Shown in pieces: positions 1-56,299 of a stretch of DNA of 64,000 nt. Each line of letters opens with the position of its first letter. Position 1 is the stretch's first letter. The notes under the pieces were generated by a model. The model ran no database searches and had not been told where the DNA came from. It was given only the letters and a program-made list of their open reading frames with translations. Source of the DNA: Klebsiella phage NU-KP11; the sequence record OR644643.1; one strand, 5' to 3'. The translations under genes were made by a program, and so were the position numbers.

Positions 1-36
1 GGGCTTTGTTATATTACACACATCGAAACGAAACAG
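1..36 (+). promoter_or_regulatory. Early promoter (5'-truncated by window edge): -10 TATATT at 10-15, conserved leader CATCGAAACGAAACAG at 21-36
   Basis: Same TATATTACACACATCGAAACGAAAC module recurs at least 6 more times upstream of small + strand ORFs. Confidence 0.6.
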
Positions 37-1668: not shown

Positions 1669-1684
1669 TTTTTGCAAAAACCCC

Positions 1685-1732
1685 TTGCCTATGGTGAGGG
1701 GTTTTGTTATATTGCATTCATCGAAACAAAAC
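1685..1732 (+). promoter_or_regulatory. Early promoter: -35 TTGCCT (inside terminator-like hairpin AACCCCTTGCC..GGGGTTTT), 17-nt spacer, -10 TATATT 1708-1713, leader CATCGAAACAAAACAG
   Basis: Consensus-like sigma70 elements with extended TGnTATATT; repeated module. Confidence 0.6.
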
Positions 1733-1747
1733 AGAGGAATCATGAAA

Positions 1748-2079
1748 TGACTATTAAAACGAGAAGTGTTGAGGTTCAGAATTTATATGCAGTTCGCACA
1801 ATCCTGGCTGTTTTGATGGGAATCTCTACCGGAAAATCTTCTTATATTGATAGTTTCATATTCTCTCTGTACAACGGGAAAACTCGTTGGGATGGTGATG
1901 TTAGTTGGACTGAACATTTTTGCGACCAGTTGAATGAGATCGCAAACGAAATCAGAAACGGGAAATACTGGAAAACTGGGATCTTCTTTACTCTGATTGC
2001 AGCGGAAGATGTTAAGTTTTGGGATGCGATAGGGGTTCCGATGAAAACATGGAAAAATATTGAACTCGAAGCAAAATAA
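1748..2079 (+). CDS. hypothetical protein (110 aa)
   Basis: First ATG after leader (preceding ATGAAATGA is a 2-codon stub); track ORF 1672..2079 trimmed. Confidence 0.5.
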
Positions 2080-2083
2080 ATGT

Positions 2084-2131
2084 TGCATTAAATCCTGGTT
2101 GTGGTATATTACACACATAGAAACGAAACAG
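2084..2131 (+). promoter_or_regulatory. Early promoter: -35 TTGCAT, -10 TATATT 2105-2110, leader CATAGAAACGAAACAG
   Basis: Repeated module. Confidence 0.55.
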
Positions 2132-4943: not shown

Positions 4944-5290
4944 ACCCAATTAATCCTTTAGTGGTTGACATTCCCGAAAAACCGCGTACACTGGAATCGT
5001 TGATCGAGAAGTATGAATATTCTCTGGCTACTCCGGCAACAGCAGAAATGGCAATGGCGGAAAGGCAAAGCATTATCTATGAATGTGATGCGAAGGGTTT
5101 CCATACCGATGAAGATATGGCGATGATTGATTATCTATGGAAAGTTCGCGGCGCGGTAGTCGATTTGATTCTTTCAAACCAACTGATGCAAAACGAAACA
5201 CGCCGCATACAAGACCGTATACGCTCTCAGTTGTATGGTATGAGCACAGAACAGAAGGAAAGAATGTATGAAATGCACAGCCGCCGTTGA
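4940..5290 (+). CDS. hypothetical protein (116 aa)
   Basis: ATGA coupling. Confidence 0.5.
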   Translation: MNPINPLVVDIPEKPRTLESLIEKYEYSLATPATAEMAMAERQSIIYECDAKGFHTDEDMAMIDYLWKVRGAVVDLILSNQLMQNETRRIQDRIRSQLYGMSTEQKERMYEMHSRR

Positions 5291-5621
5291 TGAATTGATG
5301 AGTCACTACTACAAACGCAAAGAAGATTCTCGTATCAAAGAATCAAAGTCAATAGAAATTATTGAACGATATGCTATGAAGTTAAGCGAGCAAGAATTCA
5401 CGCCAAAGGCGATCAATAGTCTGATGATCCTAAAACTTTTGATTGCTTCCGGTGATGATATGCCGTATGATGTAGATAGTGCAGAGGGATTCCAAAAGGC
5501 GTATCGTTCATGGGGAGTGATTTACTCCCGCTCACTTGGTTCTTATGACTCTGTTATGTGGAACCTGATGCACCTTGATAAGCTGATCTGGGAAGTGCTT
5601 GAAGAAGAGGGATTTGTATGA
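5268..5621 (+). CDS. hypothetical protein (117 aa; start uncertain)
   Basis: ORF track. Confidence 0.4.
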   Translation: MKCTAAVDELMSHYYKRKEDSRIKESKSIEIIERYAMKLSEQEFTPKAINSLMILKLLIASGDDMPYDVDSAEGFQKAYRSWGVIYSRSLGSYDSVMWNLMHLDKLIWEVLEEEGFV

Positions 5622-5793
5622 TTTTTACACATACCGGAATGGTTGAAACGATAACAGCAGGTAAGAAGCGTATACCCTTGATGAAATCGGGGAAATACTG
5701 GAAGAGTGAAGAACATAAGTTTGATCATAATGGTAACTCATTTGGTTCTTCTTATGCTAAACTATACCTGAAAACCATTAAACCAATTTAAAG
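5620..5793 (+). CDS. hypothetical small protein (57 aa, not in track)
   Basis: GTATGA coupling with upstream stop. Confidence 0.3.
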
Positions 5794-5804
5794 GAACTGA
5801 TCTC

Positions 5805-6059
5805 ATGTTTGAACAATCTTTTGATGAAATGAAAGCCTCTGTTTTTGTTGGAAATACCGAAGCTGGAATGGCGTTTAGATATGGGATCGCAACAATAAAT
5901 CCAGGTTACAATGAAATCACAAGCAACGATGCATTAGAACTTATTCGTAAAATGGATCGTTTGCAAGTAAACGTACCTAAGCGCCTCCATAAAAAGTGGC
6001 AAGCGTTGAGGGGTTCTTTTGTTATGGCATTTGGGCCTGATATGCTGGAAAGACTTTAA
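5805..6059 (+). CDS. hypothetical protein (84 aa)
   Basis: ORF track. Confidence 0.5.
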   Translation: MFEQSFDEMKASVFVGNTEAGMAFRYGIATINPGYNEITSNDALELIRKMDRLQVNVPKRLHKKWQALRGSFVMAFGPDMLERL

Positions 6060-6068
6060 GGAAACTCT

Positions 6069-6500
6069 ATGTTAACTAATGAACTTAGCGGGGCTATTCG
6101 TACCATTGAAGGGATCCTTCATGATTTGCGTATGGGTAACGAAATTTGTGTAAGCGACATTGAAGCAAATCTGGTTGAATGGCGCGGCGCTCTGTATGGG
6201 GCAACACAAGGAAAAGATCCGTTGTTTACGGAATATGATATGTATACAGTAACCATTGACAATAAAACTTATCGTTTTCAGTGGCCTGATGATGCATACG
6301 ATCATATCAAAACATTTTACAGTACTGGAGGTGCTCTTTTTGCTACCAGTATTGGTGTTAACGAATTGCCTTTTCATCCTGATGGATTGAGACCTTCCGA
6401 TCATTTAGGATGTACAACTGTGTTACTGGGTATGTGCGGTAACTATTCTGATCCCGTGTACTGGATTGAAGCCAGTAAAACCAACTTAAAAAGAGTTTAA
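6069..6500 (+). CDS. hypothetical protein (143 aa)
   Basis: ORF track. Confidence 0.55.
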   Translation: MLTNELSGAIRTIEGILHDLRMGNEICVSDIEANLVEWRGALYGATQGKDPLFTEYDMYTVTIDNKTYRFQWPDDAYDHIKTFYSTGGALFATSIGVNELPFHPDGLRPSDHLGCTTVLLGMCGNYSDPVYWIEASKTNLKRV

Positions 6501-7101: not shown

Positions 7102-7126
7102 AGCCCCGAAAGGGGCTTTTTTGTAG
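7102..7126 (+). terminator. Rho-independent terminator AGCCCCGAAAGGGGCT + T6
   Basis: GC hairpin with GAAA loop followed by T-run. Confidence 0.75.
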
Positions 7127-7458: not shown

Positions 7459-7512
7459 CATCCAGAAAATAAACCAGTAGTCTGTAGTTACACCAATTGA
7501 GAGGAATATATT

Positions 7513-10270: not shown

Positions 10271-10294
10271 GGGGGCGAAAGCCCCCTTTTTGTG
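10271..10294 (+). terminator. Rho-independent terminator GGGGGCGAAAGCCCCC + T5
   Basis: hairpin + T-run. Confidence 0.75.
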
Positions 10295-11131: not shown

Positions 11132-11773
11132 ATGAAGAAAATTATTATTGCTGCCAGCATTTTCTTGTGCTCTTTTTCTGGCAACGCTGCGACGGATCCG
11201 CTAGGGGATTTCATTGCGGATTTGCCTACTCATCAATTGCCTTTACAAAAGGCTACTGTAAAGCCTCCGGCAAACAAAAATTCTCCATCCTACATCAAGG
11301 ATTTGGATAATATCACACCGAAGCAGAAAGAGGTTTTGGAGTATGCTTATCGAGTTGGACACAACTATGATTTGAAGACTGCAAAACCTGTAGAAAAAGA
11401 TAAGGCTAAACGTTTAGGCTATCATTTAGCGGCTATTGCCTGGATCGAGTCTCGCGCATGTGAGAATGTCGGTAAAGGTAAAAAAGGCCATCACGCTTAT
11501 GGATGCTGGCAAGTTACCGCAAGGAGCGCCAGCGCACGAATGGATAAGTCATATCCTAAACGCGTAGTAATCAAAAAGCTCGAAACTCTTCAAGGTGGAT
11601 CGAAGTATGCGATCTATGAACTGGAGTACTGGCTTGATTACCACAAAGGCGACTTGAAAAAGGCGCTGGCGAGCTATAACGCTGGTTTCAAGTATACAAA
11701 GAAAGAAGCCCGTGATTATGCTCGTATGGTTAATACAACCGCGAAGCTGTTAGAAGAAAAACAAATCATTTGA
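11132..11773 (+). CDS. secreted protein, possible lytic transglycosylase-like (signal peptide; IAWIESRA motif)
   Basis: Signal peptide MKKIIIAASIFLCSFSGNAA; weak SLT-like ES motif. Confidence 0.4.
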   Translation: MKKIIIAASIFLCSFSGNAATDPLGDFIADLPTHQLPLQKATVKPPANKNSPSYIKDLDNITPKQKEVLEYAYRVGHNYDLKTAKPVEKDKAKRLGYHLAAIAWIESRACENVGKGKKGHHAYGCWQVTARSASARMDKSYPKRVVIKKLETLQGGSKYAIYELEYWLDYHKGDLKKALASYNAGFKYTKKEARDYARMVNTTAKLLEEKQII

Positions 11774-11775
11774 CA

Positions 11776-11840
11776 AAAAGCCCTTGACTTCGGTCGGGGG
11801 CTTTTTTATTATGAGTGCATCTAATTGAGAGGAATACATT
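11776..11840 (+). promoter_or_regulatory. Terminator/promoter module: hairpin AAAAGCCCTTGACTTCGGTCGGGGGCTTTTTT containing -35 TTGACT, -10 TATTAT, leader AATTGAGAGGAATACATTATG
   Basis: Repeated at 18790, 28481 and (minus) 39395. Confidence 0.6.
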
Positions 11841-12236
11841 ATGAGCGTTTCACATCAAGTCATTGTTTCACAAAAATATGATTACCCTAACCTGTTGCGT
11901 TGTGTGCAAGCAATCCGCGATCATTTTAGCAAACAAGACAACATCGTTATCAAAGAGATTACTTTGAGTAAATCTCTCGATTGTTTTAACATTTATTTCA
12001 CATATGATAACGAACAGCGCCGCCTGTTCATTTGTGAACTCATGGATATGTATTATGATATGGAATACAATCCTATTCCTAAAAATGGGATTTATTTTAG
12101 TATCAATGTCTGGGGAGAATCACAGAAAATCATGGATCTTGTGAAAGAAACCGTGTACACTGTCATTACAAGTTCGGATACTGTGTATGAGCGCCCGAAC
12201 GATGCTTATGAATCACGATTCACTTTGGTTAAATGA
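11841..12236 (+). CDS. hypothetical protein (131 aa)
   Basis: ORF track. Confidence 0.55.
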   Translation: MSVSHQVIVSQKYDYPNLLRCVQAIRDHFSKQDNIVIKEITLSKSLDCFNIYFTYDNEQRRLFICELMDMYYDMEYNPIPKNGIYFSINVWGESQKIMDLVKETVYTVITSSDTVYERPNDAYESRFTLVK

Positions 12237-14374: not shown

Positions 14375-14582
14375 CAAAATCAAAGCTAAAGCAATGAAGG
14401 TGATTGCGACATACGGAACACTCCGTTGGTGTAACGCGCAGGTGTGTGGGTGTATGGGTTGCGCAAATCATACCATGACAAAAGAAGAGTATGACACTGC
14501 GATCCAGATGCCAGAAATCAAAGAGTATCTTGCGCGACATAATGAAAAACTCATGGGTAAAGGATGGTTTTCAATTGGCTAA
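14367..14582 (+). CDS. hypothetical Cys-rich protein (71 aa)
   Basis: ORF track. Confidence 0.45.
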   Translation: MTDKIKAKAMKVIATYGTLRWCNAQVCGCMGCANHTMTKEEYDTAIQMPEIKEYLARHNEKLMGKGWFSIG

Positions 14583-15800: not shown

Positions 15801-15826
15801 TATTATAACGAGGCTTCGGCCTCGTT
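15801..15826 (+). terminator. Rho-independent terminator ACGAGGCTTCGGCCTCGT + T5
   Basis: hairpin + T-run. Confidence 0.7.
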
Positions 15827-15831
15827 TTTGC

Positions 15832-15839
15832 TATAAATA
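15832..15839 (+). promoter_or_regulatory. T4 late-promoter-like box TATAAATA
   Basis: Exact gp55 consensus octamer 29 nt upstream of ATG 15868; only clear instance found. Confidence 0.35.
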
Positions 15840-17550: not shown

Positions 17551-17600
17551 TGTTTTAAAGCCCCCTCTTTGGGGGCTTGACATCTAAAACGAGAATACTA
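17551..17600 (+). promoter_or_regulatory. Terminator-like hairpin AAGCCCCCTCTTTGGGGGCTT followed by consensus promoter TTGACA-N16-TATAAT
   Basis: perfect -35/-10 hexamers. Confidence 0.6.
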
Positions 17601-17726
17601 TAATGAACATAAAACAGATCGTATTGACAATACTCATTTCACTATTCTTTGGTTTTATTGGTGGATTGTTTGGTGTTTTAATAATTGCGTCTGTTTTATG
17701 ATTAACCTTTAAACGTGGAGCACGTT

Positions 17727-18785: not shown

Positions 18786-18789
18786 AACA

Positions 18790-18853
18790 AAGCCCTTGAC
18801 TTAGGTCAGGGGCTTTTGCTATATTGGGCCTACAGAAACAAAAGAGGCTTATT
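18790..18853 (+). promoter_or_regulatory. Terminator/promoter module AAAGCCCTTGACTTAGGTCAGGGGCTTTTGCTATATT + leader CAGAAACAAAAGAGG
   Basis: repeat of 11776 module. Confidence 0.6.
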
Positions 18854-19123
18854 ATGAAACATCCCTATTGTCTTGTTACCCGTCCGATTTGTCCAGGTGG
18901 GTTGCCTGTTGCCTGTTGGCAGTTGATTGAAAAGGGTGATGCGTTTTTAAACAAACGCGGTGAGAATGTTTTCGTTTACGGTGTTAACTCAATCGATAAT
19001 GAAACTATGGTTATCACCGATGAGAAAACAAATGAAAAATATACGTTGACATCCGAACACGATTGTCGTAATTTTAACGTATATTGGAAATCTGATGAAG
19101 AATTTGAAACTGTGAGGAAATGA
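18854..19123 (+). CDS. hypothetical protein (89 aa)
   Basis: trimmed to ATG after leader. Confidence 0.5.
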   Translation: MKHPYCLVTRPICPGGLPVACWQLIEKGDAFLNKRGENVFVYGVNSIDNETMVITDEKTNEKYTLTSEHDCRNFNVYWKSDEEFETVRK

Positions 19124-21841: not shown

Positions 21842-22749
21842 AAATAATTGACCTTTGCGCTGGTGTTGGTGGCGTGAGGCTCGGTTTCGATAAGGCATTC
21901 GGCGGGGTCGAATGCCTTTTAACGTCTGAAATCGATAAACATGCACAACAAACATATGCTGATAACTGGGGTGATGAAAATATTCAGGGTGATATATTCG
22001 CCATTGATGAAAACGATGTACCCGATCACGATATCCTGTTGGCGGGATTTCCTTGTCAGGCGTTCAGTAAAGCAGGGTTAAAACAGGGCATGTTAGATCC
22101 TCGCGGTACTATCATCTTTGAAATACTCCGCATTATACGGGCTAAAAAGCCCTCTGTGCTGTTCTTTGAGAATGTTCCCCAGCTATTAACCCATGACAAG
22201 GGAAACACGTTTAAAACCATCTACAGGCTGTTACAGGACGAAGGATACGATATCCATTATCAGGTAATGAATACAAAAGACTTTGGATTGCCTCAACGAA
22301 GAGAGCGCGTGTTTATTGTCTGCTTTCGCGATCCGGTGTTCTTTAGTTTTCCTGTTCCTCCACGTACCCCAACAAGGGTCGGTGACATTCTCGAACCGGA
22401 TAATGATCAATACACCATATCAGATCGTGCCTGGAAGGGCTTTAGAGAGCGTAAAAAACGAAACAAGGCAAACGGTAAGGGGTTTGGCTATCAGGCCGTT
22501 ACAGTTGATTCTGTGTGTACTGGGACGATAACAGCCCAATACTATAAGGATGGTGTTCAATGTCTGGTATTGCAGGAAGGTAAGAACCCTCGAATGTTAT
22601 CACCTCGCGAGTGTTTCCGGTTGCAAGGATTTCCGGATTCATTCAAGATGCATAAGAGCAAAACACAGGCGTACAAACAAGCGGGTAACTCTGTATCTGT
22701 TCCGGTGATCGAAGCAATTGCAAAACAAATCAAAAAAGCGCTTGCATAG
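21838..22749 (+). CDS. DNA (cytosine-5)-methyltransferase
   Basis: Motif I DLCAGVGG, motif IV GFPCQAFS, ENVP motif. Confidence 0.85.
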   Translation: MKIIDLCAGVGGVRLGFDKAFGGVECLLTSEIDKHAQQTYADNWGDENIQGDIFAIDENDVPDHDILLAGFPCQAFSKAGLKQGMLDPRGTIIFEILRIIRAKKPSVLFFENVPQLLTHDKGNTFKTIYRLLQDEGYDIHYQVMNTKDFGLPQRRERVFIVCFRDPVFFSFPVPPRTPTRVGDILEPDNDQYTISDRAWKGFRERKKRNKANGKGFGYQAVTVDSVCTGTITAQYYKDGVQCLVLQEGKNPRMLSPRECFRLQGFPDSFKMHKSKTQAYKQAGNSVSVPVIEAIAKQIKKALA

Positions 22750-22756
22750 GATAACA

Positions 22757-22807
22757 AAGAATAGTATAGTGACCTTGTTGAAACGAAACTGACAAAAGGA
22801 ACATACC
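22757..22807 (+). promoter_or_regulatory. Early promoter -35 TTGCAT, -10 TATAGT, leader TTGAAACGAAACTGAC
   Basis: repeated module. Confidence 0.5.
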
Positions 22808-23089: not shown

Positions 23090-23114
23090 AACAAGCCCCG
23101 AAAGGGGCTTTTTC
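23090..23114 (+). terminator. Rho-independent terminator AGCCCCGAAAGGGGCT + T5
   Basis: hairpin + T-run. Confidence 0.75.
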
Positions 23115-23293: not shown

Positions 23294-23580
23294 TGATTTA
23301 CGTAGCTTCTTATAGTGCTGATTATGAATTCACTGAAATTGCCCATGTTTCTGAATCATTGCAAAACTGCGTTGATGCGCTGAACAAAGTTCCTAATTTC
23401 CCTTATCTTGGTGATCATGTTACTATTGATGTATGGGAAAATGAAAAAATCATTGCAAAAAGTTCAACATTCGGGCATCGCGATGTATGGGATGATGAAT
23501 CACTACAGTACAACGAAATCCCCGTAACTTTTGAAGAGGTTATGAAAAACATGAAGGAAGTGAAAGATGAACATCTATAG
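23293..23580 (+). CDS. hypothetical protein (95 aa)
   Basis: ATGA coupling. Confidence 0.5.
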   Translation: MIYVASYSADYEFTEIAHVSESLQNCVDALNKVPNFPYLGDHVTIDVWENEKIIAKSSTFGHRDVWDDESLQYNEIPVTFEEVMKNMKEVKDEHL

Positions 23581-23806
23581 CATTGAGTTGATTTTTGATG
23601 ACCGTTTTGAGCAAACGTCTGATTGTGTATGTTCTACTGTTGACCTGAACGTCGCGATCAAATACATTAAACATACACCGCTTCCGTCGTTGCATTACTA
23701 TTGTGTAACCGTGTTTGATGGATTCACAGGAAAGCCAACACATCGTTGTACTGTTGGTTATAACGAAAGAAAACATTTCACTGCGTTTGAGTGGGAGAAA
23801 TTATAA
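23567..23806 (+). CDS. hypothetical protein (79 aa)
   Basis: ORF track. Confidence 0.45.
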   Translation: MNIYSIELIFDDRFEQTSDCVCSTVDLNVAIKYIKHTPLPSLHYYCVTVFDGFTGKPTHRCTVGYNERKHFTAFEWEKL

Positions 23807-26865: not shown

Positions 26866-26903
26866 TGAGATCTCGCCCCCGAAAGGGGGCTTTGAGGTGA
26901 CTT

Positions 26904-28480: not shown

Positions 28481-28548
28481 AAAGCCCTTGACTTTGGTCG
28501 GGGCTTTTTGCTATATTGGTTCTATCGAAAACAATGAGGAATACATTA
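28481..28548 (+). promoter_or_regulatory. Terminator/promoter module AAAAGCCCTTGACTTTGGTCGGGGCTTTTTGCTATATT + leader TCTATCGAAAACAATGAGGAATACATTATG
   Basis: repeat. Confidence 0.6.
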
Positions 28549-38510: not shown

Positions 38511-38701
38511 TTACGGTATTTGATTGATTGGTTCATTGCAGAGATAATGCCAGATTCTTGCATGTTAGAAGCGCAATAGACTTCGGCAACCTGGATTTCG
38601 CGGTCATAGAGGTAAACACTACCACGAAAAGTTTTCAAGTGAGCGAATCCGCAATCTTTAACCAGGTTAAGGAATTCTGCTTTCTTCATCATGTGAGCCA
38701 T
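38498..38701 (-). CDS. hypothetical protein (67 aa; MAHMMKKAEF...)
   Basis: trimmed to ATG after minus-strand promoter/leader. Confidence 0.45.
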   Translation of the reverse strand: MAHMMKKAEFLNLVKDCGFAHLKTFRGSVYLYDREIQVAEVYCASNMQESGIISAMNQSIKYRKWMG

Positions 38702-38745
38702 TTTGTTTATCTCCGTGTTTCGTTTCAATGAACACACTATACAAA
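38702..38745 (-). promoter_or_regulatory. Early-class promoter on minus strand (TATAGTGTGTTCATTGAAACGAAACACGG)
   Basis: module. Confidence 0.55.
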
Positions 38746-38789: not shown

Positions 38790-39359
38790 TTAAACGGCTT
38801 CTGTTTTCACTTCTAAACCAAGTTTAGCAAGCGCTTCAACTGCCATGAAATGATTTTCAAACGGAACTTCAACAGAAATTCGAATTGTTGTCGGTGTTGG
38901 ATCAGTCAGATATTTTGTCATTTGACGATCTTTCTGGTTTTTGCAAAGGATATCCGCCAGCGCTTCTACCGCGTCAGAATTGAAATCGTATGCATAATCA
39001 AGTCGGGATTGCACATAACGCATGTTGCGTTGAACATAATCCGGATATTCTTCAACGATCGGGGTTGCAACAGCCGCTTCGCTCATGCATTCAAAGTTAG
39101 GTTTTCGGAAAATACCAACACACTTATCATCGGATTCGTTATATACGAAAATAAATGCGTTGCTGTTCATGATATGGACGCACTGATACACTGGATGTCG
39201 GTAAATCACTTTCAGTACTTTCTTCACAGAAGGTTTGATAATGTGATTGGTTTCGAAGCGGGAACCTTCGGTTACTGTCAGCAGAGATTTTACTTCGTCG
39301 ATATGTTTACCGGACAGGTTTGCCATAAGGGTTTTGTGTTTCTGATAACTACTAGTCAT
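38790..39359 (-). CDS. hypothetical protein (189 aa)
   Basis: trimmed to ATG after module leader. Confidence 0.5.
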   Translation of the reverse strand: MTSSYQKHKTLMANLSGKHIDEVKSLLTVTEGSRFETNHIIKPSVKKVLKVIYRHPVYQCVHIMNSNAFIFVYNESDDKCVGIFRKPNFECMSEAAVATPIVEEYPDYVQRNMRYVQSRLDYAYDFNSDAVEALADILCKNQKDRQMTKYLTDPTPTTIRISVEVPFENHFMAVEALAKLGLEVKTEAV

Positions 39360-45791: not shown

Positions 45792-45868
45792 TGGTGGCCC
45801 CTCCCGTGACTTGAACCGGGAACCTAACCATTATGAGTGATTAGCTCTACCTATTGAGCTAAGGGGCC
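45792..45868 (-). tRNA. tRNA-Met/Ile2 (anticodon CAU), 77 nt with encoded CCA
   Basis: Acceptor GGCCCCT/AGGGGCC, D-arm GCTC-AATAGGTA-GAGC, anticodon loop CTCATAA, T-loop TTCAAGT; T-stem needs a 1-nt A bulge. Confidence 0.6.
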
Positions 45869-55708: not shown

Positions 55709-56299
55709 TTATACCTTTTTATATCGATCGACTACGATTTTTTCAATGCGTTCATGTTCTTTGATGTACTGAGTTTTGAAATCAGTAAATTCATATTTTA
55801 ACAATGCATCACCCAATTCAGAAGCAGTAAACGAAACATCGCGTTTAAATGCTGGGGCATTATATACATGATGTCCGTAAATGTGCGTCAAAACTACTTC
55901 ATCAACCATTTTATTATTGATTGAATCTAAAAGCAACCCCTTACCACCGATGACACATACATTTTTATCTGGGTGTGTTGCTTGCATTGTACCAATAGCA
56001 GCAGACAACCCGCCACCGTGGATCACATAATCAGCAACCTCTCCTTTTTTGGTTTTCAAAAAACTACCGGAACCAGACAGAACACAATGGATCCTACCAG
56101 GTAGTTTACCCGGAAGAGAGATAAACGTATTTGCACCCATGATCAAAACGCTATCGGCGGTTTCTTCTTTGAAGTTCTGTAAATCTTCTTTACAGTGGCC
56201 CCACGGCAAGCCTTGCTGATATCCAAAAGCGAAATCATCGTGGTAGATATCATGCCCCAGCGCAAACACCGCTTTTACTATGCTCATATTGCGATCCAC
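55709..56299 (-). CDS. frd: dihydrofolate reductase
   Basis: GLPWG...DLQNFK...IMGANTF; upstream of td as in T4. Confidence 0.75.
   Translation of the reverse strand: MDRNMSIVKAVFALGHDIYHDDFAFGYQQGLPWGHCKEDLQNFKEETADSVLIMGANTFISLPGKLPGRIHCVLSGSGSFLKTKKGEVADYVIHGGGLSAAIGTMQATHPDKNVCVIGGKGLLLDSINNKMVDEVVLTHIYGHHVYNAPAFKRDVSFTASELGDALLKYEFTDFKTQYIKEHERIEKIVVDRYKKV

Follow-up and report, generated by a model that had tools for sequence, protein, structure and literature searches.

Does a short hairpin between two genes of a Klebsiella phage end the transcript of the first gene, start that of the second, or do both? The question is raised by a locus near position 11,775 of the stretch of DNA analysed here, which is 64,000 nucleotides long (Klebsiella phage NU-KP11, record OR644643.1) and is called the window below. 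The phage belongs to the genus Slopekvirus (T4-like, infecting Klebsiella); the window shares 99.6% identity with Klebsiella phage pR7_1 and about 98% with the Slopekvirus phage Matisse. Comparison with the genome of phage KP15 places it at about 31.3-95.3 kb of the KP15 coordinates, in reverse orientation. A preliminary description had read the locus as a terminator hairpin whose own sequence supplies the -35 box of the next sigma70-type promoter. The comparisons reported here support the core of that reading, as a prediction from sequence.

Such a design has already been described in T4-like phages. About 50 ‘promoter-early stem-loop’ (PeSL) cassettes are present in each of the phages RB49 and phi1; they combine sigma70-like promoters with stem-loops and are divided, by where the stem-loop lies, into five subclasses; in one of these it overlaps the -35 box (Arbiol et al., 2010; PMC2839356). 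In a lacZ assay, termination by a PeSL stem-loop equalled that by rrnB T1, and the promoters of PeSLs proved very strong (PMC2839356). By recombining with one another, PeSLs cause cassettes of ORFans to be deleted, inserted, and circularised, and the excision of mini-circles has been shown for RB49/phi1 (PMC2839356). PeSLs were extended to the phages T4/PST and KVP40/nt-1 (Comeau et al., 2014; PMC4122927). The preliminary description had overlooked both the fact that the design was known and the double role of the units as junctions for the recombination of gene cassettes. A literature search found no paper that describes PeSLs in Slopekvirus.

Repeated units in the window

The 13-mer AAAGCCCTTGACT is found in exact copies at 11777(+), 18789(+), 28481(+), and 39430-39418(-), in agreement with the near-identical modules described earlier at 11776, 18790, 28481, and 39395(-). 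When two mismatches are allowed it has 8 matches against 1.24 expected, a number reached by none of 100 shuffles. A variant copy at 1678, AAACCCCTTGCCT, has a 3' arm that compensates. A mechanical hairpin scan and a composite scan recovered the five sites of the preliminary description and added a sixth at 38776-38742(-). The composite scan, which asked for a hairpin carrying a -35 box, a spacer of 16-19 bp, and a -10 box, found six real units and one dubious hit in the window, against a mean of 0.57 in 30 dinucleotide-preserving shuffles. A covariance model (R1), which was built from 10 copies and yields 21 sense-strand units in 288 kb, revealed the tail of a seventh unit at the very start of the window, in its first 21-29 bases. 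The window thus holds six complete terminator/promoter units and one that is cut at the window start. They are listed below with three related elements; the promoter boxes are predicted.

1-29, plus strand: U0, a unit truncated at the window start, of which the 3' part remains, with GGGC, TTTG, -10 TATATT at 10-15, and ATCGAAAC at 22-29
52-252: downstream ORF, predicted to be driven by U0
1677-1713, plus strand: U1, with hairpin 1677-1705 (AAAACCCCTTGCC-TAT-GGTGAGGGGTTTT; -19.1 kcal/mol, z -4.7), -35 TTGCCT at 1685-1690, 17-bp spacer, TGT and then -10 TATATT at 1708-1713, downstream ATG at 1747; model score 46.4 bits
11775-11812, plus strand: U2, the copy named in the preliminary description, with upstream stop TGA ending at 11773, hairpin 11775-11806 (UUCG loop; -20.7 kcal/mol, z -5.7), -35 TTGACT at 11784-11789, 17-bp spacer, -10 TATTAT at 11807-11812, Shine-Dalgarno 11829-11832, ATG at 11841; model score 61.5 bits
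18789-18825, plus strand: U3, with hairpin 18789-18816 (-19.9 kcal/mol), -35 TTGACT at 18796-18801, 18-bp spacer, TGC and then -10 TATATT at 18820-18825, ATG at 18854; model score 64.4 bits
28481-28517, plus strand: U4, with hairpin 28481-28508 (one bulged T; -17.0 kcal/mol), -35 TTGACT at 28488-28493, 18-bp spacer, TGC and then -10 TATATT at 28512-28517, ATG at 28548; model score 47.7 bits
39395-39430, minus strand: U5, with hairpin 39430-39403 (-20.7 kcal/mol), -35 TTGACT at 39423-39418, 17-bp spacer, TGT and then -10 TATATT at 39400-39395, ATG at 39359, DNA ligase gene upstream; model score 61.8 bits
38736-38776, minus strand: U6, absent from the earlier list, with hairpin 38776-38742 (core GCCTCTTGC-AAU-GCAGGGGGC; -21.4 kcal/mol), -35 TTGCAA at 38764-38759, 17-bp spacer, -10 TATAGT at 38741-38736, ATG at 38701
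17557-17604, plus strand: related element in a different arrangement, with hairpin 17557-17578 (-18.7 kcal/mol) abutting TTGACA at 17577-17582, 16-bp spacer, TATAAT at 17599-17604
2083-2110, plus strand: hairpin-less promoter copy, with TTGCAT, 16-bp spacer, TATATT, then ACACACATAGAAAC
22742-22770, plus strand: ‘half’ unit, with an A-run, GCGCTTGCAT, 17-bp spacer, TATAGT, then GTTGAAACGAAAC

U0 matches positions 25-46 of the model with bases 1-21 of the window, its 5' end being cut, and it has the same form as the complete KP15 unit at 94627-94671. Two places, 1681 and 17551, had been taken for related arrangements; the former is the variant unit U1, whereas the latter has another layout, in which the hairpin almost lacks a T-run and abuts a promoter that matches the consensus at 12 of 12 positions. 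In the ‘half’ unit, GCGCTTGCAT resembles a 5' arm and the 3' arm is missing. The genes behind the units of the window encode small proteins that belong to PHROGs of unknown function in six of seven cases. KP15 carries about 14 units by the scan and the covariance model, with none within 100-154 kb, a stretch that includes the late structural block. A search of Rfam with the units returned no matching family.

Common layout of the units

The units occupy gaps of 67-88 nt that separate co-directional genes, and their parts follow in a constant order: the upstream stop codon, an A-run, the GC hairpin, a T-run, the -10 hexamer, a leader, the Shine-Dalgarno sequence, and the ATG. The stop codon lies 1-13 nt ahead of the hairpin, and 28-35 nt separate the -10 from the ATG. 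The -35 is TTGACT, TTGCCT, or TTGCAA and the -10 is TATATT, TATTAT, or TATAGT. All six complete units have 5-7 U among the 8 nt past the stem (7 of 8 in U6, as read from the sequence). A TGn triplet, either TGT or TGC, stands right before the -10 in four of the six (U1, U3, U4, and U5); it is absent in U2, which has TTT, and in U6, where TTG directly abuts the -10.

Several details differ from the preliminary description. The -35 had been placed in the loop or the 3' arm of the hairpin, but TTGAC (TTGC in U6) forms the inner 5' arm and only the last base or bases lie in the loop. The -10 had been put 16-19 nt downstream of the -35, but the spacers, made of the 3' arm and the T-run, are 17 or 18 bp. 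TATATT had been given as the -10 of the named copy, where the sequence at 11807 reads TATTAT. Likewise, the leader said to follow most copies does not do so: the 21-nt leader has only two matches with up to three mismatches, at 7495 and 11823, and the first of these is away from any unit. The 15-mer GAGGAATACATTATG follows U2 and U4 only. It also stands ahead of genes within operons (7501 and 12235), and so is a general ribosome-binding context.

The hairpin as an RNA structure

The folding energies of the hairpins on the sense strand run from -17 to -21.4 kcal/mol, and z lies between -4.4 and -5.7. The antisense folds reach -13.5 to -16.2 kcal/mol and are 4-7 kcal/mol weaker because the stems hold G.U pairs; there are 1-3 of these in most copies, and they become A.C mismatches on the opposite strand. 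When units of the window, of KP15, and of the Pseudotevenvirus phage Miller, 18 in all, were folded one by one, TTG was present in 18 of 18, its partners being G/A, G/A, and C/U, while positions 4 and 5 of the -35 were seen to covary with their partners. The six positions of the -35 behave as follows in the 18 folded units.

Position 1: T; partner G or A
Position 2: T; partner G or A, unpaired in 2 units
Position 3: G; partner C or U
Position 4: varies; pairs as C-G or A-U
Position 5: varies; where it pairs, C-G, A-U, or G-C; part of the loop in 6 units
Position 6: varies; always in the loop

Covariation was counted in 21 copies, 19 of them distinct, taken from the window, KP15, and Miller. 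In an alignment that is fitted to the model structure and in which many copies are related by descent, 99.1% of the cells hold standard pairs, against 87.8% in shuffles, and none of 500 shuffles reaches 99.1%. Two-sided changes are found at 4 pairs, in 19 cells. As a control, the partner was slid by 1-3 columns, upon which pairing falls to 30-69% (at most 68.6%). Whole-unit alignments made with MAFFT were dropped as they misplaced the 3' arm or shifted the class with 10-nt arms, and were replaced by the individual folds and the covariance model. The inner stem occurs with compensation as GAC/GTC, GCA/TGC, GCG/CGT, and GCC/GGT. At orthologous sites of Miller the design is kept with a changed stem while TTG and the -10 are retained. 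For example, after the Vs.1 gene TTGAC...GTCGG has become TTGCA...TGCAG in Miller and the unusual -10 TATTAT is still in place. A further candidate rule, that the perfect complement CAA never occurs in the 3' arm, by which an antisense -35 would be avoided, was refuted by Miller 66959-67003 (CCCCTTGC...GCAAGGGG).

These observations also bear on the idea that the inverted repeat acts as DNA, whether as the operator of a dimeric repressor over the -35, as a cruciform, or as a recombination site. The repeat is indeed centred on the -35, and units coincide with recombination junctions. However, the inner stem changes freely with compensation, which fits poorly with a sequence-specific operator, and the A.C mismatches and weaker fold of the antisense strand speak against a cruciform. 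For recombination, a repeated sequence suffices by itself. A role of the repeat as DNA is therefore regarded as highly improbable. Rather, the stem covariation and the G.U pairs that exist on the sense strand only point to an RNA hairpin, and hence to a predicted terminator.

The hairpin as a probable terminator

The units have a GC-rich hairpin that is followed immediately by a U-tract and lies downstream of a stop codon, as is the case for Rho-independent terminators. Unit hairpins are also called as terminators independently in the records of relatives, by ARNold in KP15 and as curated features in Matisse and Miller. For example, the U2 hairpin is a terminator feature in the Matisse record, and the KP15 record has a promoter and a terminator at the same site. 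Similarly, at the site of U5 the KP15 record has a promoter, 55838-55875, that encloses a terminator, 55843-55864.

How efficiently the hairpins terminate is the main uncertainty. Strong GC hairpins with T-runs also lead straight into a Shine-Dalgarno sequence where a promoter is absent, at 7102, 10271, 23093, and 26875. The genes beyond these need read-through, and the hairpins of this phage may consequently be leaky attenuators or stabilisers of RNA 3' ends instead of efficient terminators. The units could, on this basis, be promoters accompanied by an inefficient terminator, with a hairpin that stabilises or marks the 3' end of the upstream mRNA or attenuates weakly; the nearly missing T-run of the 17557 hairpin is in line with it. 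Against it stand the 5-7 U per 8 nt in six of six units together with stems of -17 to -21 kcal/mol, the terminator calls in the KP15, Matisse, and Miller records, and the PeSL stem-loop that cut lacZ expression as strongly as rrnB T1 (PMC2839356). A promoter with an inefficient terminator is considered unlikely, and the hairpin is read below as an intrinsic terminator.

The predicted promoter side of the units

Generic promoter matches do not help to decide whether the units also start transcripts. Scans of the window with generic promoter consensus sequences gave no excess over shuffles (55 against 53.2; 46 against 47.8), so such a scan cannot carry a promoter claim alone. A background set was taken from IMG/VR with the pattern GCCCTTG N10-11 GGGCTTT, which retrieves mostly unrelated terminators among the matches listed. 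About 8 of 36 of these unrelated full-stem GCCCTTG...GGGCTTT hairpins, among the matches listed, have a -10-like hexamer at 16-19 bp. With such a hexamer in around one in five background hairpins, one coincidence counts for little, and it is the family as a whole that has to carry the argument. Two IMG/VR loci, L057 and L072, are true relatives of the units among the matches listed.

Both of these results favour the idea that the units are terminators only, the promoter likeness being a by-product of the TTG in GCCCTTG stems and of a T-run with an AT-rich leader behind it, which easily resembles a -10 box. The family argues otherwise. TTG is constant in 18 of 18 folded units while the adjacent stem positions covary, the Miller orthologs alter the stem and retain TTG and the -10, the spacers are confined to 17-18 bp, and TGn directly precedes the -10 in four of six units. 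Six bases past the -10 there is a conserved block, ATCGAAAC(G)AAAC, and the window has 8 copies of the combination TATATT-N6-ATCGAAA, where shuffles have 0.68. This is a separate conserved module, and blocks of the TATATT-N6-ATCGAAAC type are also found behind a hairpin-less TTGCAT, at 16-17 bp (2083 and 22742). The motif was, moreover, found independently by MEME in KP15, whose record lists 17 MEME promoters, 8 of which overlap an ARNold terminator. PeSL promoters were active as lacZ fusions (PMC2839356). A terminator that only resembles a promoter is hence held to be very unlikely, and the units are taken to be predicted promoters as well.

The type of promoter can be narrowed down further. 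The units have TTGNNN, a spacer of 17-18 bp, and a -10 box, as in the sigma70-like early promoters of PeSLs. The KP15 RefSeq record labels them ‘putative middle promoter’, which would imply promoters of the MotA type. Beyond this label, used in the KP15 annotation, the evidence goes in the other direction. The Mot-box pattern (a/t)3 TGCTTnA, N11-13, TAnnnT has no match in the window, TTGNNN stands at sigma70 spacing, and the GCTT of the units lies at -19 to -16 and not at -30 to -27. Two weak tests agree: five candidate KP15 ORFs gave no MotA or AsiA Pfam hit, and tblastn with a T4 AsiA query of approximate sequence found nothing. The sister phage RB43 is without motA and middle promoters (PMC1524935). 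The probability of MotA-type middle promoters is accordingly put close to nil. The early promoters of the RB43 type have a G at -33 and an A-rich stretch from -40 to -44, in a phage without MotA (PMC1524935), and the A-run of the units matches that A-rich stretch.

Gene cassettes exchanged at the units

The comparison with relatives shows that cassettes have been inserted, lost, and exchanged at the units, both within Slopekvirus and with Pseudotevenvirus. The ORF 1747-2079 (PHROG 19403, "head protein") is extra in comparison with KP15 and sits exactly between two TATATT boxes. Its cassette of about 400 bp has the -10 of U1 as the left junction and the hairpin-less copy at 2083-2110 as the right one. 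Among the phage records that match the query, 47 of 171 cover it to at least 80%, which is taken to mean that the record carries the cassette; it is absent from other relatives including KP15 and Miro, in which about 400 bp are missing. Segments with 91-95% identity to Pseudotevenvirus genomes start at 1678 (the start of the U1 hairpin), at 1697 (inside the hairpin), and at about 2105 (the -10), and end at 2426, just ahead of the next promoter. The segment that starts at about 2105 has 93-95% identity. Regions in the neighbourhood reach only about 75-80% with these genomes.

The cassette at U3 is polymorphic relative to KP15: it exists as two alleles, with a difference of about 300 bp and another subtype of the hairpin. 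The homology to KP15 breaks at 38716, 26 nt past the U6 hairpin, and the genes downstream are replaced. Only 3 of about 9 rearrangements between the window and KP15 are located at units; others, at 4944-6150, 13515, 14375-14576, and 23571-23792, lie away from them.

Relation to known systems

In design, the units closely resemble the PeSLs of RB49 and phi1. They share the intergenic cassette with a stop codon, an A/T-rich region, the -35 and -10, a stem-loop, a Shine-Dalgarno sequence, and an ATG. They are likewise repeated, occur in plastic early regions upstream of small genes of unknown function, and have copies at the junctions of indels or replacements between close relatives. A stable stem-loop, intergenic position, repetition, and location at junctions are thus all found. 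There are also differences. [quoted passage not shown] The published stems are described as polyG-loop-polyC, in contrast to GCCC...GGGC with G.U pairs. The genomes hold about 14 copies here and about 50 in RB49/phi1, and the conserved +1 block ATCGAAAC is a feature of the window phage.

The PeSLs of T4/PST and KVP40/nt-1 are similarly composite terminators/promoters near indels, and their ‘half’ or degraded copies resemble 22742-22770; their stem-loops, however, lie just upstream of the promoter, and their boxes are TTTACW or TTGYVH (PMC4122927). With the early promoters of the RB43 type the units share the G of TTG at -33, the UP-like A-rich -40 to -44, a -10 in which -11 is A and -7 is T, and probably the lack of a MotA middle mode (Nolan et al., 2006; PMC1524935). 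In that study promoters and TransTerm terminators were predicted separately and their overlap was not described (PMC1524935). Compared with canonical Rho-independent terminators, the units have the GC-rich stem, a loop of 3-4 nt (UUCG in U2), the U-rich tail, and the position just past a stop codon, but their 5' arm is bound to contain TTG, and their U-tract and tail double as the spacer and the -10. A further known description is the KP15 record (NC_014036), in which a MEME ‘promoter’ encloses an ARNold ‘terminator’ at the same sites in 8 places. It differs in speaking of ‘putative middle promoters’, and the paper on KP15/KP27 employs neither PeSL nor stem-loop as a term (PMC5219037). As the PeSL design is known in T4-like phages and is visible in the overlapping features of KP15, the finding is real but ordinary.

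A model of the composite unit

Each unit is probably a composite of an intrinsic terminator and a sigma70 early promoter of the PeSL type, repeated as a cassette that also serves as a homology patch. Support for the core of this reading comes from stable hairpins, U-tracts, canonical spacers, stem covariation, sense-only G.U pairs, and the terminator calls of relatives, and further from the -10/+1 block reused behind a hairpin-less -35 and the PeSL experiments in RB49/phi1 (PMC2839356). Searches of the literature found no Slopekvirus transcriptome or data on transcript 5' or 3' ends, and we infer termination, initiation, and the start site.

In this model RNA polymerase leaving the upstream gene would transcribe the unit from the A-run through the GC-rich hairpin to the U-tract and would release the RNA some 7-9 nt past the stem, within the spacer or the -10 of the next promoter. 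The hairpin would remain on the 3' end of the upstream mRNA. As duplex DNA the same sequence would act as a sigma70-type early promoter: TTGNNN, from the 5' arm and the loop, would be the -35, the spacer of 17-18 bp would consist of the 3' arm together with the T-run, TGn would make an extended -10 in four of six units, and the A-run at about -40 to -45 may act like the UP element that it resembles. Initiation would take place at the A of ATCGAAAC, 7 nt past the -10, and new transcripts would thus be free of the hairpin. In this way, about 70 nt could suffice to insulate each small early gene or group of genes as a separate transcription unit. The cassette of about 60-80 bp, being repeated, also serves as a homology patch for the insertion, loss, and exchange of genes.

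Since the predicted release site is inside the next promoter, it is conceivable that the overlap does more than save space and that the terminating polymerase is handed directly to that promoter, i.e., that termination is coupled to re-initiation and the polymerase is recycled. If so, upstream transcription would boost the downstream start with no occlusion. Such a hand-over is judged distinctly unlikely. The +1 block ATCGAAAC(G)AAAC could belong to such a restart signal, or it could be a common 5' leader that has a separate role.

Significance

The finding opens no new question, and its value lies in what it extends and corrects. It corrects the ‘middle promoter’ label of the KP15 reference record and provides compact natural parts that are predicted to combine a terminator with a promoter. 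For phage engineering, the units mark boundaries of transcription units and of recombination that should be respected. It also supplies clean examples of gene-cassette exchange across genera, in which the junction lies at the hairpin or the -10. The PeSL design is extended to the Slopekvirus and Pseudotevenvirus phages of Klebsiella and Enterobacteriaceae, which are widely used as candidates for therapy, and the subclass with the -35 inside the hairpin is the dominant form in this group.

Conserved sequence downstream of predicted promoters

The conservation at many of the predicted early promoters in the window, in Klebsiella phage KP15 and in the Pseudotevenvirus phage Miller extends to a block, ATCGAAAC(G)AAAC, which starts 6 nt past the -10 and frequently continues into AGAnAAAGGAA. 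The block is found at promoters with and without the hairpin and is kept across genera, and it could be an initial transcribed sequence or a common 5' leader. In the window it is located at the following positions.

22-34, 1720-1732, 2117-2129, 2477-2489 and 28524-28531 (+): ATCGAAAC(G)AAAC block
39390-39383 and 38108-38096 (-): ATCGAAAC(G)AAAC block

A further promoter family has TTGAC(N), a -10 and the conserved downstream block CGTAGACAAG, in that order. A terminator hairpin at 43593-43568 (-) lies about 25 nt upstream of a promoter of this family, with no overlap between the two.

Window, ~43542-43470 (-): TTGAC(N)/CGTAGACAAG promoter
KP15, 18863, 88413 and 148527: TTGAC(N)/CGTAGACAAG promoters

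Hairpins with other partners

Several GC hairpins with GAAA loops and T-runs lead straight into the Shine-Dalgarno of the next gene, with no intervening promoter.

7102-7117, 10271-10286, 23093-23110 and 26875-26890 (+): GAAA-loop GC hairpins before a Shine-Dalgarno

Since the genes 3' of these hairpins must need read-through, the hairpins would be leaky terminators or RNA stabilisers. Elsewhere, the T4 late-promoter box TATAAATA occurs a single time in the window, 5 nt past the hairpin at 15807-15826.

15807-15839 (+): hairpin plus TATAAATA

The pair appears to combine a terminator with a late promoter, following the principle of the hairpin/early-promoter units.

Annotation of the KP15 record

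All 17 promoter features in NC_014036 are labelled 'putative middle promoter', a label at odds with their sequences, which have sigma70-type -35 and -10 boxes and lack a Mot box. The CDS KP15_96 appears to be annotated over the unit equivalent to that at window 28481..28517 (+). The KP15 record also lists a tRNA-Gln adjoining tRNA-Met; in the window, the tRNA-Gln was called by neither ARAGORN nor Rfam, and both called the tRNA-Met.

45792-45868 (-): tRNA-Met (CAT)

Cassette contents and edges

The ORF at 1747-2079 (+), which matches PHROG 19403 ('head protein'), is missing from KP15 and is carried by some Slopekvirus genomes and not by others. This ORF recalls T4 and its shuffled internal-protein genes. 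Ahead of several units, a 5' flank, TAGCAC(T)5G(T/C)T(A)n, is conserved and takes in the stop codon of the upstream gene.

Window, ~38156 (-) and ~2429 (+): flank
KP15, 10042, 10386 and 56495: flank
Miller, 57003 and 94053: flank

This flank is probably the 5' edge of the shared cassette.
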